Shown piece by piece: positions 25,422 through 51,527 of a DNA stretch of 64,000 nucleotides. The number at the start of each line of letters is the position of its first letter. Within the stretch, counting starts at the first letter, position 1. The stretch is taken from NCBI GenBank assembly GCA_029258835.1, contig JAPDJY010000053.1:1-64000 (forward strand), in the 5' to 3' direction. A model generated the notes under the pieces. That model was not told where the DNA came from, made no database searches, and saw only the letters and a program-made list of their open reading frames with translations. The stretch is from Thermoproteota archaeon. GTDB taxonomy: Archaea > Asgardarchaeota > Jordiarchaeia > Jordiarchaeales > Freyrarchaeaceae. The translations under genes were made by a program, and so were the position numbers.

Positions 25422-26936
25422 TTATGGCATTGACAGCCTACCTGGGTGCATGATGAAGTTCGGGTCAATAACCTCTCTAAACCGCCTTAAGAGGTCATAG
25501 TATGCCTTAGCCCTAGCAAACGTTAGCGGGGCATGCACGTACGGGTCAGGCCTATAGTTCAGCCACCCTTTATCGAGGAATATCTCCGTAGTGACGCGGT
25601 TCACCTCCTGCACACGACGCACATCCTCAGGATCAGTATAATCGAAGCATACGATAGGCATACAAATTGCCTGGCGGCAGTGGTCAATGCTGGCTATCCA
25701 CATAACCGGAGGGAAACCATACTCCTCCAGCTTCTGATTGTAAATCTCCGCGAATTCCGCACAGTTCTTCCATGGGGTATACCAGGTAATGAACAGGAAT
25801 CCGGCGTTCCATAGCGAGTATGGGATGGCGATCTTGTTTGGTTTGCGGAGCCTGCTTTGGATTTGCTTGGGGTGTAGCTTCCACTCCTTTATTTCGTGGC
25901 CTGTTTTCGCGTTGTATTCTTTGGCTAGTTCATGTATCTTGTTAACTGTGAAGTCGAGTTCTTCTTTGCTGTGGCACCAGATCTCGAAGTTCATCCACCA
26001 TCGGGGGATGCCGAGTTTCTTGTAGAACTCGTAGTCTGTTGGGACTTTCTCCTTAGGCCATCGGGTCATGACAAGGGGCCAGTTTCCTCCCTGCACCATT
26101 ACGAGGTGGTCTGCTATGCCTAGCTCGTACTTTGACACTTCTAGGGTGAAGTCTTGCATGTCGTATGGGTTGTCCATTCCATATGCAATTATTGTCTTGT
26201 GGTGTGGGTGGGGGACTATTTTTATTGCGAGCTTGGTGATGACGCCCATTGTGCCTTGGGCTCCTAGGAAGAGGCCGTCGAAGTTTGGTCCTAACCCCCA
26301 CCTGTAGAATGGCTTTGCTCCGGGTAGAGACCAGCTTCCGGTTCTGACTATTTCGCCTGTTGGGAGTACGATTTCCATGCCTAGTACCATGTCTGCCTGT
26401 GGGCCATACCTTGCTGTGACCATGCTGAATCCTCTTTCGAGGGCGTCGCCGACCACGGTTGCGGCTGGCGGTGCACCGTCGGGAACCGGGGGAGCCCAGT
26501 CTGGGTAGTATTCTTCAGGGCAACTGAGGGATATCCTCTATGTTGCCTTTCTGAAGTATGCCCAGACTTTGCCGCTTCTTACCCCCGGCTCCAGTACGGC
26601 GTATCTTGCGTCGGTGTTGACTTCTATTATGCGGTCCATTCGTGATAGGTCTAGTAGGATTCCTCCTGGCTGTACTAGGGGGGTTGCGTATCCGCCGCTT
26701 AGTCCTCCTGCGCATGGGGTTACGGGTATGTGGTTTTCATTTGCTAGGATCAGAATTTTTCTCACTTCTTCGACGTATCTGGGTCTCACGACTACTTCTG
26801 GTACTGTTGCTTCAAGCCCCATTATCCCTCTTGAGAGGTAACTGTACCGCATCGCGATGTCTGACGAGACGAACTCTTTCCCTACTATGCTTTCCAGCAT
26901 CTTTACGATGTCAGGTGTAACTTCATTATAACTCAC
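25422..26936 (-). CDS. FAD-binding oxidoreductase (GlcD/D-lactate dehydrogenase-like); two exons 26936-26549 and 26512-25422, 492 aa spliced
   Basis: PEVVVRP, GGILLDLSRMDRI, LEPGV / VLGMEIVLPTG, GAQGTMGVIT, DPNFIMHPG. The two same-frame ORFs join when a 36-nt BHB insert is removed. Confidence 0.85.
26513..26548 (-). other. Predicted BHB-type mRNA intron (36 nt)
   Basis: TCAG-AA^A-GGCAAC...GTTGCC-CTGA-AG^A; contains the in-frame TAG; spliced junction reads YFRKYYPDW. Confidence 0.8.
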
Positions 26937-38935: not shown

Positions 38936-39437
38936 CTCCCACCTGTTTACTTAAAACATCTAGGAGGACCTTTTCAAGGATGGTTACGAGTGCTTCAAGA
39001 GACTCTTCAACTTCAGGGGATAACTTCTCACCGAGGGCGCTCTTAGGCTGAACACCTACAAATATTACGTAGGCGTTAACCGTCTCCTGTAGGTACCTTG
39101 CAACCATAGAGAGAGGGGTGTGATGAGTTGAAAATGTTACTCCTCCTAAACTTGAGATGTCTGATGTTACCACCACGTCCCCGGGGCTACCGTTGAACTG
39201 GGCTGCATCCACGAAGACTACGTGGCTGGGTTCAAAACGCCTTAAAACACCTGTAAAGTTTTCAGGCATGGTTCCTGCTTCCACCACCAGAACGTTGGCA
39301 AGTTTTAAGCGTTTAAGCCTTCTGGCAACTTCAAGCCCCACCCGGTCGTCACCCTTGAGCTCGCTTCCCACGCCTACAATAGCCACCTTGACCGCGCCGT
39401 CCAACAGCTTCTTGAGAGCCTTTATCAAGCCTAACAC
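38913..39437 (-). CDS. hycI: Hydrogenase maturation peptidase (HycI-like)
   Basis: GVGSELKGDDRVG, GTMPEN, VDAA, STHHTPL, GVQP. Confidence 0.85.
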   Translation of the reverse strand: MLGLIKALKKLLDGAVKVAIVGVGSELKGDDRVGLEVARRLKRLKLANVLVVEAGTMPENFTGVLRRFEPSHVVFVDAAQFNGSPGDVVVTSDISSLGGVTFSTHHTPLSMVARYLQETVNAYVIFVGVQPKSALGEKLSPEVEESLEALVTILEKVLLDVLSKQVGDVQVGEG

Positions 39438-39501
39438 CCATAACTCCTTAACAAAGGAAACTTTAAAACCGTTTTTAACAAAGCTGATGACGGTGGCAGA
39501 A

Positions 39502-40083
39502 ATGGAGGAGAAAACAGAGGGAGAAAGTAGGGTTCAAGAGGAACTTAGAGAAGGAGAGGAAGAGGAGAAGGTTACCGGACTCTTAGTTGACGGCGATGTT
39601 GTGATCAACGAGAAAGACGCCGAGAAAATACATGGGAAAGGCTACGGAGAGTACGAGGAAGACGGGAAACTTCACCTAGCACCCGTAGAAGCACTCCTCC
39701 TAGCAGAAAGGGGGAGACTCGTGGTGCTGGATAGTGAAGGCAGGGAGCTCACATTTAAAGAATTAGCGAAGACCTTCACCCGGAAAGACCCTAAACTATG
39801 GACGCGGTACTTGGTTTACAGGGACCTGAGAAGCAGAGGGTATGTTGTTAAGCAAGGGTTCGGAGGGGGAATAGACTTCAGAGTTTACCCTAGAGGAAGT
39901 AAGGTCGGAGAGGAAGCTGCGAAAACGCTGATATACATAGTCACCGAGGGAAAACCGATAAACCTTAAGGAGCTAGACAGAGTAACCAAGCTCGCAGTAA
40001 GCATGAGGAAGAAGCTCACAATGGCGCTGATAAACAGGCAGGGTGACGTTGTATACTACAACGTGCTACAGATGACGTTTTAA
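39502..40083 (+). CDS. endA: tRNA-splicing endonuclease subunit (probably the structural/beta type)
   Basis: LAPVEALLL, YLVYRDLRSRGYVVK, DFRVY, RKKL; the expected catalytic His is not seen. ORF-track start 39157 overlaps hycI. Confidence 0.88.
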   Translation: MEEKTEGESRVQEELREGEEEEKVTGLLVDGDVVINEKDAEKIHGKGYGEYEEDGKLHLAPVEALLLAERGRLVVLDSEGRELTFKELAKTFTRKDPKLWTRYLVYRDLRSRGYVVKQGFGGGIDFRVYPRGSKVGEEAAKTLIYIVTEGKPINLKELDRVTKLAVSMRKKLTMALINRQGDVVYYNVLQMTF

Positions 40084-45879: not shown

Positions 45880-47022
45880 TTGGTGAAAAAGTATAGGATT
45901 GCTGTTCTTCCTGGTGACGGAGTTGGACGCGAGGTCATCCCTGAAGCCCTAAAGGTTTTGGATTCGGCTGCGGAGGCTGTGGGAGGCTTAGATTTCGACT
46001 ACGTGGAGGTTCCATGCGGCGGCAAGTACTACTTGGAGACGGGGTTAGAGTGGCCTGACGACGGGTTTGAAACGTGCAGGGGAGCTGACGCGATACTCTT
46101 CGGGGCGGTTGGGTGGCCTAAGGCCGTCTTGCCCGGCGGACAGCTGGCAGGGATAGGCATACTCTTAGACCTCAGGTTTGGGCTGGATCTTTACGCTAAC
46201 GTTAGGCCGGCGAAACTTTACGATGGGGTCGAGTGCTTCGTTAAGGGTAAAAAGGCGGGGGACGTGGACTTCGTCATCGTCCGGGAGAACACGGAGGGGC
46301 TTTACGCCCCCATTAGAGGAAGCCTTGAAAGGGGAGGTAAACGTGAGGTGGCTGTAGACGTCAGGGTTTTAACTAGGAAAGGTTGTGAAAGGGTGATAGA
46401 CTACGCTTTTAGACTATGCCTTTCGAGGATGGGGGCGGCCGTCGACGGGAAGCGTAGGGTGACGTGTGTTGATAAGAGCAACGTGCTTGAAGGGTGTAGG
46501 TTTTTCAGGAAGGTTTTTGACGAAGTTGCTGAAAAGTATGGAAGCATTGAGAAAGATTATGTTTACGTTGACGCCATGACCCAGTGGATGATTAGGACGC
46601 CGGAAAGGTATGATGTGATCGTTACAACTAACATGTTCGGGGACATCCTCTCAGACCTATCATCCGTGTTGATAGGAGGGATGGGCATGGCTCCCAGCGG
46701 CAACGTGGGGGATGAGCACGCAATGTTCGAGCCGGTACATGGCAGCGCACCTGACATAGCTGGCAGGGAGGTGGCGAACCCCATAGGAGCCATCCTCTCG
46801 GCTAAGATGATGCTTGAGTGGCTTGCCCAAAAGCACAAGGATGAAGCTTGCAGAAAAGCTGCTGAAGCAATAGAGAGGGGGGTAGCAGACGTACTTGCCG
46901 ATGGAAAAATTAGGACGCAAGACCTCTGCTATGGAAGATACGCCGACGTTAAGCCCAGCAAGACAAGTGCGGTGGGAGACGCCATAGCCCAAAGGATACG
47001 TAATGGAAAACCAGCCTATTAA
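45880..47022 (+). CDS. Isocitrate/isopropylmalate dehydrogenase family (LeuB-like)
   Basis: PGDGVGREV, DLYANVRP, RENTEGLY, DKSNV, NMFGDILSD, FEPVHGSAPDIAG. Confidence 0.92.
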   Translation: MVKKYRIAVLPGDGVGREVIPEALKVLDSAAEAVGGLDFDYVEVPCGGKYYLETGLEWPDDGFETCRGADAILFGAVGWPKAVLPGGQLAGIGILLDLRFGLDLYANVRPAKLYDGVECFVKGKKAGDVDFVIVRENTEGLYAPIRGSLERGGKREVAVDVRVLTRKGCERVIDYAFRLCLSRMGAAVDGKRRVTCVDKSNVLEGCRFFRKVFDEVAEKYGSIEKDYVYVDAMTQWMIRTPERYDVIVTTNMFGDILSDLSSVLIGGMGMAPSGNVGDEHAMFEPVHGSAPDIAGREVANPIGAILSAKMMLEWLAQKHKDEACRKAAEAIERGVADVLADGKIRTQDLCYGRYADVKPSKTSAVGDAIAQRIRNGKPAY

Positions 47023-47226: not shown

Positions 47227-48515
47227 ATGGGGATGACTATTTCGGAGAAGATCTTAGCGTCCCACTCGGGAAAGGAGAGGGTTGAGCCGGGTGAGATAGT
47301 TAATGCTAAGGTTGACGTGGCGATGGTCCACGAGATGCTTGGAAACCCGGCGCCTTGACGGGCTGGGCTAAACTGCGCATAGCAGACATCTACGAGGAAC
47401 TCGGCGTTGATCGCGTCTGGGATCCGAAGAAGATAGTCGCGTTGATAGACCACTGGACGCCTGCTCCAAGCATAGATGCTGCTGTTATCCATGTAACCTG
47501 CAGAAGGTTCGTTGAAAAGTATGGTGTTGAGAACTGGCTTGACATGAGAGAGGGTATATGCCACGTTGTGCTTCCTGAGAAGGGGTTTGTTAAACCCGGA
47601 GACCTTGTTGTTGGAAGTGATTCCCACACGACGACCTACGGAGCCGTTGGAGCGTTCGCTACGGGAATAGGCGCCACCGACATGGCTATTGTGCTCGCTA
47701 CGGGTGAACTCTGGTTTAGGGTTCCGTCAACGGTGAAGTTTAACATTACAGGTAGGCTTCAGCCGCTGGTTATGGGCAAGGACATAATCCTTCACATTAT
47801 AGGTGAGATAGGAGTAGATGGGGCGACCTACAAGGCGATGGAGTTCTCGGGCGAGGTTGTGAAGGAGCTCAGCATGGATGGAAGGTTCACTCTCTGCAAC
47901 ATGGCTGTAGAGGCGGGAGGGAAAGCAGGCATAATAGAGCCGGATGAAAAGACGATAGAGTGGGTTAAGGCAAGGGTCAGCCAGCCGTTCAATCCGGTCA
48001 TGAACGACCCTGACGCAGAATACGAGGAGGTCATAGACGTTGATGTTTCAGGGCTGGAGCCACAGGTGGCTAAGCCGCCAAGCCCCCAGAACACGGTGCC
48101 CGTATCGGAAGTGGAAGGGACAAAGATAGACCAAGCCTTCGTCGGGTCATGCACTAACGGTCGGCTTGAAGACCTGAGAGCGGCTGCCAAGATACTTAAA
48201 GGCAGGAAGGTCGCAAGAAACGTAAGAGCTATAATAATACCGGCCTCGAAGGAAACCTACCTAGCGGCGATGAGGGAAGGCCTCATAGAAACGTTCTTGG
48301 AAGCAGGGTGCGTAGTCTGTAATCCGACGTGTGGCCCCTGCATAGGCGCCCACCTAGGACTTCTAGCACCAGGGGAAGTTTGCATATCATCATCCAACCG
48401 TAACTTCGTTGGAAGAATGGGAAGCAAGGACGCATGGATCTATCTTGCATCGCCAGCAACGGTAGCTGCATCAGCAGTAACAGGCGAAATAACAGACCCA
48501 CGTAACTTTGTCTAA
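47227..48515 (+). CDS. leuC: 3-isopropylmalate dehydratase/homoaconitase large subunit; two exons 47227-47344 and 47374-48515, 419 aa spliced
   Basis: [11 protein letters not shown]...VDVAMVHE is in one frame. [32 protein letters not shown] and [10 protein letters not shown] are in another. The frames join when a 29-nt BHB insert is removed. Confidence 0.9.
47345..47373 (+). other. Predicted BHB-type mRNA intron (29 nt)
   Basis: TGC-TTGG-AA^A-CCCGGC...GCTGGG-CTAA-AC^T-GCG; spliced junction reads [16 protein letters not shown]. Confidence 0.88.
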
Positions 48516-48644
48516 CCAGCAGGGGGCGGGAAGGCGGGGAACCCATCGCTTCACCAGCGTAGAGGCAGAGTTTCACCTACTATCTTCGAGCTGGCGGAGA
48601 TAGGGAAATAGGAAAAAGGAGGGGTTTAGAAGGCTGCTTTTTAC

Positions 48645-49442
48645 TTATTCCTCTATTATGGCTACCGCCCTGCACCAGCCTGCTGAGCCACCCTTCACCT
48701 TCACCGGGAAGCATGCAACCTTGAAGCCATATGGCTTCTTTAGGGTGTCGTAGAGGTAATCTAGGTTTGCCAGCTTCTCTATGTGAAGGTAGGTTTTCTC
48801 TCTGCCCACGTAGTGGGCTTCCCATATTATGCTTGGGTCTCCCGTCTTTTCATAGTCAGCTTTTATAGCCCAGAATGGCCTATCCCATCCCCAAGCGTCA
48901 ATCCCAACAACTCTGACCCCTTGCTCTATGAGCCATAAAGTGGCCTCCCTAGTCATTCCGCATCCAGCGTTTAAGTACTCCTGTTTACCCCATAACTTGT
49001 CTGCACCCGTCATTATCATCACTATGTCTCCTGGCTTAATCTTATAATTTATCTTTTCAAGTGCTTCCTTTAGGTCCTCAACTGTTATCCCGGAACCCTG
49101 CGGCTTATGCCTCATGTCTAGTATGACGCCGTCGCCGTAACACCATTCTAAGGGGATCTCGTCGATCGTCTTTGCAGGCTTCCCCTCGCTTGTCGGGGCG
49201 TAGTGCCAAGGAGCATCCAAGTGGGTGCCGTGGTGGGTTGAAAGTTTATTGATCGTGTCGTCAGCCCACCCCAACCCGTCTGGCAGATCCTCTTCCTTGC
49301 ACCCGAAGACGAAGCTCATCAATTTTGCGCCTTCCTTATGGTCTCGGTGGATAACTTCAGGCGGGAAAAACTCGCTTGGAACGGACTCTATGGGAACACT
49401 TAAGTCTACTATTCGAACTCTACCCAAGAAGAATCCCTCCAA
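48645..49442 (-). CDS. Cyclase family (kynurenine formamidase-like) metal hydrolase
   Basis: HHGTHLDAPWH, GIDAWGWD, IEKLANL, GGSAGWCRAVA. Confidence 0.9.
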   Translation of the reverse strand: MEGFFLGRVRIVDLSVPIESVPSEFFPPEVIHRDHKEGAKLMSFVFGCKEEDLPDGLGWADDTINKLSTHHGTHLDAPWHYAPTSEGKPAKTIDEIPLEWCYGDGVILDMRHKPQGSGITVEDLKEALEKINYKIKPGDIVMIMTGADKLWGKQEYLNAGCGMTREATLWLIEQGVRVVGIDAWGWDRPFWAIKADYEKTGDPSIIWEAHYVGREKTYLHIEKLANLDYLYDTLKKPYGFKVACFPVKVKGGSAGWCRAVAIIEE

Positions 49443-50884: not shown

Positions 50885-51527
50885 CTAGAGAGTAATGTTT
50901 AGATACTGCATGATTTGAGGCGCCAGGAGTCCGAGAAGGCCTCCTGATTCAGCTTGCCATGAGAAGGTGAGGTAAGCTATCAGCGCTATGCATGCGCCAC
51001 AGAGCACAATGTTAACCGCATGGTTGTCGTAGCGCAGCTTAGCAAGGCGCAGGTCTCGCTCGTGATCCCATAGGAATGCTCTGAGACTTTCCTGCTTCCG
51101 GGGGAGGATGTAAGGCAGCGTCCTCACCCCGGTCGGATTTGCCCCCATCAAGGTTTAGGCTGTCCGCTAGCCAGTGTGAGAAGACTGCTGCGGCTGCGAT
51201 AGCGAAGTATTGAGGGACGAAGTAGCCTATCAGGAGTGGCAGCCAGATAAGTGTTAGAATACTGTGGAGCAACCCTGACCTGTGCATTACCCTTTCTCTT
51301 TTCAGAAGCTGATCTAAGTCGGGTATGATTCCGAAGAAGCCGCCCGCGGCAAGTGCTGGGACGGCGCCTGATAGGGCAAGCTGAACCTGCCACGTGGAGC
51401 TGTACCTTGAAAGATCCATCAGTGTTTGCAGCTGGGAGAGCAGTGAGCCTTTAAGCTCAGGCGATACGAAGGATATCACGAGAGCTGCTGCGGCTGCTCC
51501 CAATATAATGTGCGTGTACTTCTGCAT
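50885..51527 (-). CDS. Membrane-bound metal-dependent hydrolase (YdjM/DUF457-like); two exons 51527-51155 and 51138-50885, 208 aa spliced
   Basis: YTH, IPDLD, HRSGLLHS, SHWLADSLN|PTGV; the family motif is completed only after removing a 16-nt insert. Confidence 0.85.
51139..51154 (-). other. Predicted BHB/BHL-type mRNA intron (16 nt)
   Basis: CGGACA-GCCT-AA^A-CC-TTGAT-GG-GGGC-AA^A-TCCG; spliced junction reads ADSLNPTGV. Confidence 0.8.

Follow-up and report, generated by a model that had tools for sequence, protein, structure and literature searches.

A probable bulge-helix-bulge intron in a leuC/hacA-family messenger RNA of the Asgard order Jordarchaeales

The stretch of DNA analysed here, referred to as the window, comprises 64,000 nucleotides (nt) and corresponds to bases 1-64000 of contig C6 (JAPDJY010000053.1) of a metagenome-assembled genome (MAG) of 2.72 Mb in 91 contigs. 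Its nearest protein relatives belong to Candidatus Jordarchaeales, an order of Asgard archaea for which the name Freyarchaeia is also in use. In this window, a gene of the leuC/hacA family, encoding the large subunit of an aconitase-family dehydratase, is interrupted after 39 codons by 29 nt (47345-47373) that very likely constitute a bulge-helix-bulge (BHB) intron, of the kind found in transfer RNA (tRNA), within the precursor of its messenger RNA (mRNA). Predicted excision restores a single reading frame that matches uninterrupted homologues without a gap, and the motif recurs at the identical codon across two families of the order in inserts of differing sequence and length.

Results

The gene is read in two frames. 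From ATG 47227, which an in-frame TGA precedes, an open reading frame (ORF) of 43 amino acids (aa) runs through HEMLG and ends at TGA 47356-47358. The remainder of the gene lies in a different frame, as an ORF of 386 aa (47355-48515) that matches Pfam Aconitase (7.8e-107). Exon 2 alone scores above the NCBIfam cut-offs for NF001614 (589.4 bits; cut-off 385), TIGR01343 hacA_fam (588.7; 385.7) and TIGR02086 IPMI_arch (538.1; 410), and it stays below equivalog level for LEU2 (526 bits; cut-off 610.65) and HacA_Meth (497.5; 550). By these profile scores the gene can be placed firmly in the family of hacA and archaeal isopropylmalate-isomerase large subunits rather than with one enzyme, and no single enzyme or substrate is assigned because the LEU2 and HacA_Meth scores fall below their equivalog cut-offs. 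On the exon-2 ORF, the NCBIfam family profiles begin at profile position 39-42 and run to the end. About 40 N-terminal positions are therefore missing from this ORF, and the upstream ORF supplies 39 codons before the break.

The break coincides with a strict hBHBh' motif. An explicit search with the pattern 5'-h-H(4 bp)-B(3 nt)-h'...h'-H-B-h-3' finds an outer helix (h) of 3 base pairs (bp), a central helix (H) of 4 bp, an inner helix (h') of 6 bp and two 3-nt bulges (Table 1). The strict form calls for flanking helices of at least 2 bp each; h and h' measure 3 and 6 bp here, and 3-4 and 3-11 bp in relatives. The in-frame TGA falls inside the inner-hairpin segment. Each bulge was taken to be cut between its second and third residue, a rule adopted from PMC2738675 and confirmed by complementary DNA (cDNA) for crenarchaeal cbf5 introns (PMC2738675). 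The motif geometry was adopted from the same paper; on the intron-bearing tRNAs of this genome, ARAGORN, a permissive program that covers anticodon-loop introns only, gave similarly noisy results for canonical and mirror geometries. Excision of 47345-47373 under this rule gives CTT GGA A|TG CGC ATA within a single 419-aa frame, and the predicted junction in the spliced mRNA reads GCTTGGAA|TGCGCATAG.

A preliminary description of this locus had reported the same architecture, and most of it stands. The start at ATG 47227, the HEMLG segment, the TGA at 47356 and the change of frame are borne out by the sequence, and the positions of helices, bulges and intron prove correct by both the sequence and the motif search. 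In silico excision returns the junction and the 419-aa protein that had been proposed, and the cut after the second bulge base agrees with the cDNA-verified cbf5 rule (PMC2738675). The leuC/hacA label holds at family level, where profiles exceed their cut-offs, and does not hold at equivalog level, where they fall short. The neighbour described as leuB-like is recognized as such by its Pfam Iso_dh and NCBIfam 3-isopropylmalate dehydrogenase matches.

Comparison with uninterrupted homologues places the insert precisely. Exon 1 is covered by residues 3-40 of the outgroup ORF and exon 2 by residues 41-418; the query gap between the two segments is 0, and that in the subject is 29 nt. Sixteen uninterrupted homologues read HEMLG-M, their Met matching the junction-made ATG (Met40). 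Among 40 relatives searched in six frames, 11 loci of other Asgard families carry no insert and read straight through; one such reading is HEVLGSRIIDIL, compared with the predicted spliced HEMLGMRIADIY. The nearest uninterrupted homologue (L110, 65% identity) also lacks an insert. Database gene calls from the clade are all 360-390 aa long, against 415-422 aa for other homologues, so the gene break appears to be universal in the clade.

The preliminary description had named two signs that would separate a BHB intron from a simple 1-nt indel. About 10 extra residues at this position in orthologs would have pointed to the indel, and none are present in the uninterrupted homologues, which come from other Asgard families and from other phyla. 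Removal of the insert was expected to leave no gap, and the alignment to uninterrupted homologues is indeed gap-free. The choice of an intron over an indel is further upheld by relatives that carry in-frame, stop-containing versions of 30, 33 and 36 nt, together with a 41-nt version.

These sequences derive from the six-frame search of the 40 relatives, extended by four metagenome contigs and six further assemblies. A strict BHB at the identical codon, with the junction HEMLG|MRIA, is present at 18 of the 19 orthologous loci (13 distinct sequences from two families). In family f1, this genome and three others share an insert of 29 nt there that shifts the frame, and in family f2 five genomes have a 33- or 30-nt in-frame insert bearing one or two stop codons. 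The 36- and 41-nt versions came from the additional contigs and assemblies. Every version (29, 30, 33, 36 or 41 nt) contains an in-frame stop or shifts the frame. The motif goes beyond what chance would give, because it sits at the same codon in 18 intact loci despite the differing sequence and length of the inserts. A single gain of the intron, predating the divergence of the two Jordarchaeales families, is probable.

Three independent studies have contigs, one of them at depth 45, that bridge the insert unchanged and show neither an indel nor a joint. On this evidence the insert is real DNA and not an assembly or sequencing error. As expected, the DNA contigs contain the unspliced form only. 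Between the two families, exon 1 shows 15.0 synonymous and 6.8 non-synonymous codon differences over 39 codons, a ratio like that of exon 2. This excess of synonymous differences argues that exon 1 is translated and under purifying selection.

Covariation supports the pairing itself. The 13 distinct ortholog sequences were aligned and the BHB was represented by its three helices. Standard pairs fill 92.3% of cells, and sliding the 3' partners by 1-3 columns lowers this to 20.7-40.4%. Changes on both sides are seen in 7 of the 16 BHB pairs, and the covariation score was reached by none of 500 shuffles. The central helix is paired in all 13 sequences (100% of cells); at one of its pairs this genome has U-A where 11 of the 12 other sequences have C-G, both sides being different, and two further pairs vary on one side only. 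Across relatives, six of the eight aligned inner-helix pairs have changed on both sides. The inner-helix sequence is wholly different between families (CCCGGC or CGC... versus UCAA/UCAG...), and its pairing is kept.

Several observations weigh against an intron, or reduce the weight of the evidence for one. The unconstrained fold yields the inner hairpin only and does not recover the central helix; the full BHB has an energy of -14.0 kcal/mol compared with -20.9 kcal/mol for the minimum-free-energy fold at 37 C, a gap that is smaller at 60-75 C, and the fold z-score of the region, -1.1, is unremarkable. We regard the non-minimal energy as a mild caveat, because a protein reads the motif and the energy model penalises 3-nt bulges. 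The three outer-helix pairs are invariant in the 13 distinct sequences and lend no independent support, both strands being coding and the helix hence uninformative for covariation. Kinship among the sequences makes the shuffle statistic overstate significance, and for this reason more trust is placed in the slid-partner control. At one locus, Logan contig L106 (L106:370-444), a family-f2 ortholog otherwise identical to L105, a 1-nt deletion beside the 3' bulge breaks the motif, the outer helix and the frame; either the contig is misassembled or the copy is truly dead. In most lineages a TTG or ATG, inside the insert or at its end, could serve as a start for exon 2. A run search listed no RNA run that contains the locus, and in the protein collection, searched with short fragments and for proteins matching and longer than exon 1, no spliced-form protein from the clade was found. 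Cleavage and ligation of the leuC mRNA are therefore inferred from sequence.

The possible exon-2 starts bear most directly on a split gene that functions without splicing, in which a peptide of about 43 aa and a protein of 380-386 aa from an internal start would associate non-covalently and the hairpin would act as a translational-coupling or stability element. Such an arrangement would account for purifying selection on exon 1, for the TTG or ATG, in frame with exon 2, that many lineages have inside the insert or where it ends, and for the gene callers' annotation of the two pieces as separate ORFs. However, in lineage L002 the exon-2 frame is devoid of canonical start codons between 57 nt before and 60 nt after the 3' site, and the database call for it opens with CTG. 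The tails after HEMLG (NPAP, SAAH, NAAHL, NQP, N...) differ freely among lineages and so are not under selection, and the conserved TTG of family f2 belongs to the inner and central helices. Separate translation also leaves unexplained the compensatory upkeep of two 3-nt bulges exactly 4 bp apart, and the gap-free protein that excision by the EndA rule gives in every lineage. We consider a split gene improbable.

Equally little probability attaches to a BHB that is cut while its exons are never rejoined, which would lead to decay of the mRNA or down-regulation of a dispensable paralogue. The genome does encode two uninterrupted large-subunit paralogues (C33:11944-13050 and C2:694-1824), and cleavage of non-tRNA substrates by the endonuclease is known (PMC7714728). 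Yet purifying selection acts on each exon in its own frame, and splicing alone would unite the two frames. Intact homologues have the same number of residues as the junction gives, and the same Met, and an RtcB ligase is encoded. The genome has three small-subunit (Aconitase_C) genes for its three large subunits, implying that each of the large subunits is in use.

Viewed by itself, the window has the premature stop and shifted frame expected of a pseudogene, or of a simple frameshift or other error in sequencing or assembly, and about 20 other zero-length frameshifts or in-frame stops occur in conserved genes of this MAG. The interruption of leuC is instead an insertion of 29-41 nt rather than a 1-nt indel, it is kept in two families at different lengths, it is identical in the contigs of the three studies, and the exons on both sides are under purifying selection. 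Assembly or sequencing error is excluded by the bridging contigs, and a plain pseudogene by the conservation and by the selection on exon 1, leaving these explanations with a minute probability. Translational recoding, either by programmed frameshifting or by a ribosome that bypasses the insert in the manner of phage T4 gene 60, could draw on the stable hairpin, the in-frame stop soon after a GGA codon and a second GGA at the 3' end in L003 and family f2, and it is nonetheless scarcely credible: f1 lineages L001, L002 and L004 have no matching landing codon for bypassing, in f1 frameshifting would add about 10 residues that are absent from all homologues, in f2 it would bring no rescue, since the inserts keep the frame but contain one or two stops and the remaining frames are closed as well, and the 3' GGA is accounted for by its complementarity to the central helix.

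The components that a BHB intron would require are encoded in this genome, one of them in the window. The EndA-type protein of the window scores 92 bits against TIGR00324 endA, above the cut-off, and has an N-terminal extension of about 140 aa that matches no family. Both it and a second EndA-type protein on contig C1 carry an N-terminal and a catalytic domain; the window protein matches the first half and the C1 protein the second half of two-unit endonuclease models. From these matches, a heteromeric endonuclease of two EndA-type subunits, of the broad-specificity kind, may reasonably be proposed.

The Iso_dh gene upstream of exon 1, which belongs to the same type of pathway, has 3-isopropylmalate dehydrogenase as its best NCBIfam match, at 351 bits and below the equivalog cut-off. 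The order of this gene followed by the large-subunit gene is kept in relatives, and in family f2 the small-subunit gene comes third. In this genome no small subunit lies downstream, where a minus-strand cyclase gene (window 48516-49442) is found instead. One of the three Aconitase_C genes (C15:58308-58460) is an orphan without an adjacent large subunit, and its product would be the partner of the intron-bearing large subunit.

Similar inserts are found in other genes. In a motif-free census, 2133 ORFs of a complete 1.42-Mb outgroup genome (G011) were aligned to this genome (G000). After removal of antisense shadow alignments, 49 interruptions of conserved genes were left, 23 of which are insertions of 8-120 nt. 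When a perfect 4-bp helix, two 3-nt bulges, h+h' of at least 4 and an excision length within 3 nt of the homology-predicted length are demanded, 15 of the 23 qualify, compared with 2-4 of 23 at wrong cut offsets. Lowering h+h' to at least 3 admits 17, and 12 of these 17 match the homology-predicted length exactly. The leuC intron is one of the cleanest of the set, because many census inserts lack an outer helix and take a relaxed form.

A motif-first scan tested 240,565 strict BHB candidates for joining two coding ORFs. Its first criteria let through about 18,000 chance passes and missed leuC through a 30-nt slack limit; once a codon-usage score was included, an excess of about 120 +/- 35 over wrong-offset nulls appeared at the correct offset, which is suggestive only.

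Two of the 15 inserts, those in cbf5 and rpl44e, are confirmed by Pfam. The one in cbf5 occupies the codon position reported for the crenarchaeal cbf5 intron (PMC2738675); its exon 1 carries DKCLD, and its exon 2 carries TruB_N, matched from profile position 17 onward, followed by TruB_C_2 and PUA. An insert in a paralogous small-subunit gene contains two in-frame stops, and its host gene adjoins an uninterrupted large-subunit paralogue. Two inserts lie elsewhere in the window. That in the FAD_binding_4 gene joins ORFs of 130 and 363 codons which match FAD_binding_4 positions 1-80 and 93-139, a single domain split in two. The other joins ORFs of 129 and 84 codons, the first matching YdjM positions 1-108 of 176 and the second without a significant match.

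Thirteen further inserts of 11-55 nt in conserved genes show a 4-bp helix between two A-rich 3-nt bulges, usually with a strong inner stem, and many of them have little or no outer helix (relaxed BHB). Separately, conserved genes are broken at about 21 sites by zero-length frameshifts or un-gapped in-frame stops (TAA 4, TGA 2, TAG 1), for which assembly error, pseudogenes, recoding or very short introns may each be the cause.

Table 1. Features of the interrupted gene, its predicted splicing motif, the candidate splicing machinery and other inserts. Positions are those of the window unless a contig or locus is given.
Feature	Location	Strand	Remarks
Exon 1, leuC/hacA-family large-subunit gene	47227..47344	+	39 codons and first base of junction codon
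Exon 2	47374..48515	+	last two bases of junction codon ATG through stop codon; Pfam Aconitase
Predicted 29-nt BHB intron	47345..47373	+	third base of 5' bulge through second base of 3' bulge
Outer helix h, 5' strand UGC	47336..47338	+	pairs with 47375-47377
Central 4-bp helix H, 5' strand UUGG	47339..47342	+	pairs with 47368-47371
5' bulge AAA	47343..47345	+	predicted cut 47344/47345
Inner helix h' and loop	47346..47367	+	CCCGGC (47346-51)/GCUGGG (47362-67); in the minimum-free-energy fold
Central helix H, 3' strand CUAA	47368..47371	+	motif search
3' bulge ACU	47372..47374	+	predicted cut 47373/47374
Outer helix h, 3' strand GCG	47375..47377	+	motif search
Isopropylmalate/homoisocitrate-dehydrogenase-like gene	45880..47022	+	Pfam Iso_dh 9.2e-99; upstream of exon 1
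EndA-type splicing-endonuclease subunit gene	39157..40083	+	308 aa; Pfam tRNA_int_endo_N and tRNA_int_endo
Second EndA-type subunit	C1:12233-12481		190 aa; ORF C1:11942-12514; N-terminal and catalytic domains
RtcB ligase	C1:78966-80273
Insert in FAD_binding_4 gene, 36 nt	26513-26548	-	BHB core UCAG aaa GGCAAC...GUUGCC CUGA aga; H 4, h' 6, h 1
Insert with BHB core, 16 nt	51139-51154	-	GCCU aaa CC...GG GGGC aaa; h' only 2 bp
BHB insert in cbf5, 27 nt	C27:11929-11955 (L182:329-355)		cut at G|AC of catalytic Asp codon (GTLD|P)
Insert with BHB core in rpl44e, 29 nt	C27:13051-13079 (L182:1451-1479)		Pfam L44e positions 1-36 / 38-74
Strict BHB insert in paralogous small subunit (Aconitase_C, leuD/hacB-like), 27 nt	C2:1897-1923		CCGG cau ... 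CCGG aaa; h 4, h' 3
Further inserts, examples	C1:87579-87597, C8:63575-63604, C4:24354-24376, C19:4619-4673
Further inserts, examples	C8:8772-8796, C12:61713-61739, C1:136638-136664, C51:12697-12716

Discussion

In the mechanism we propose, the leuC transcript would fold locally into an outer helix of 3 bp, a central helix of 4 bp and an inner hairpin of at least 6 bp, with one 3-nt bulge on each strand. A splicing endonuclease, probably the heteromer of two EndA-type subunits, would cut after the second base of each bulge, and RtcB ligase would join the exons and leave the 29-nt intron released. The junction would create the codon A|TG (Met40) and with it the 419-aa reading frame. Without splicing, a ribosome would stop after 43 residues.

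Among the closest known counterparts is the cbf5 intron of Crenarchaeota, a BHB insert in a coding sequence that is cut by the tRNA-splicing endonuclease, after which the exons are rejoined (Watanabe 2002; Yokobori 2009, PMC2738675). Both introns are short, lie in coding sequence and are misread by gene callers as frameshifts. The host of the crenarchaeal intron is an RNA-modification enzyme, whereas here it is a metabolic dehydratase of the aconitase family in an Asgard archaeon, and cbf5 introns are mostly of unconventional or relaxed form (PMC2738675), in contrast to the strict hBHBh' of leuC. Splicing of cbf5 has cDNA and in vitro support, whereas that of leuC is deduced from the DNA.

Within the clade itself, introns are present in 92-95% of tRNA genes of Freyarchaeia/Jordarchaeia (PMC11291895). 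The BHB introns of tRNAs, numerous in Freyarchaeia/Jordarchaeia and in Atabeyarchaeia (PMC11291895; bioRxiv 10.64898/2026.10.13.758758), share with the leuC intron the motif, the predicted dependence on EndA and RtcB, and similar lengths. Unlike these tRNAs, the spliced leuC product would be translated, and excision of the intron must be exact to the nucleotide if the frame is to be kept. In Haloferax volcanii, a BHB intron in the 5' untranslated region of HVO_1309 makes an mRNA a substrate of the endonuclease in vivo and in vitro (PMC7714728). That intron lies in an untranslated leader and leaves the frame intact, whereas the leuC insert is within the coding sequence and would stop translation if it stayed in the mRNA.

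In eukaryotes, the HAC1/XBP1 mRNA contains an intron that resembles the one proposed for leuC in being removed without the spliceosome, by cuts at two small stem-loop or bulge sites and joining by a tRNA ligase, which is RtcB in animals, and in changing the reading frame of the product when it is removed. The nuclease there is Ire1, and the splicing is a regulated stress switch. The nuclease and the motif differ from those proposed for leuC, and the regulation belongs to HAC1/XBP1.

Archaeal protein genes are treated as intron-free, and in the literature searched cbf5 is the sole exception in coding sequence (PMC2738675, PMC7714728). Open-access papers and bioRxiv yielded, as mRNA BHB introns, only those of cbf5 (coding sequence) and HVO_1309 (5' untranslated region), and none from Asgard archaea, which is not proof of their absence. 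The leuC intron is of interest for its host gene, for its phylum and for its place in an apparently genome-wide set. It is probably one of dozens of mRNA introns spliced by EndA and RtcB in Jordarchaeales, which would include those in the core translation genes cbf5 and rpl44e and in metabolic genes.

If the leuC insert is an intron, the database entries for this gene in the clade are all N-terminally truncated, at 360-390 aa instead of about 419 aa. Genes of this kind would likely be scored as pseudogenes or as missing in metabolic reconstructions of MAGs from the clade, and Asgard genomes would need intron-aware gene callers. The shared cbf5 site would mean either that its intron is older than the split of Asgard archaea and Crenarchaeota, or that insertion has occurred repeatedly at a preferred site. 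Should the leuC insert and the 15 or more similar cases in this genome all be introns, an Asgard lineage would routinely need the tRNA-splicing machinery to splice mRNA for its proteome, and this machinery would be in general use for mRNA in a lineage near the origin of eukaryotes. How such introns spread, and how they are tolerated under coupled transcription and translation, would then become directly testable.

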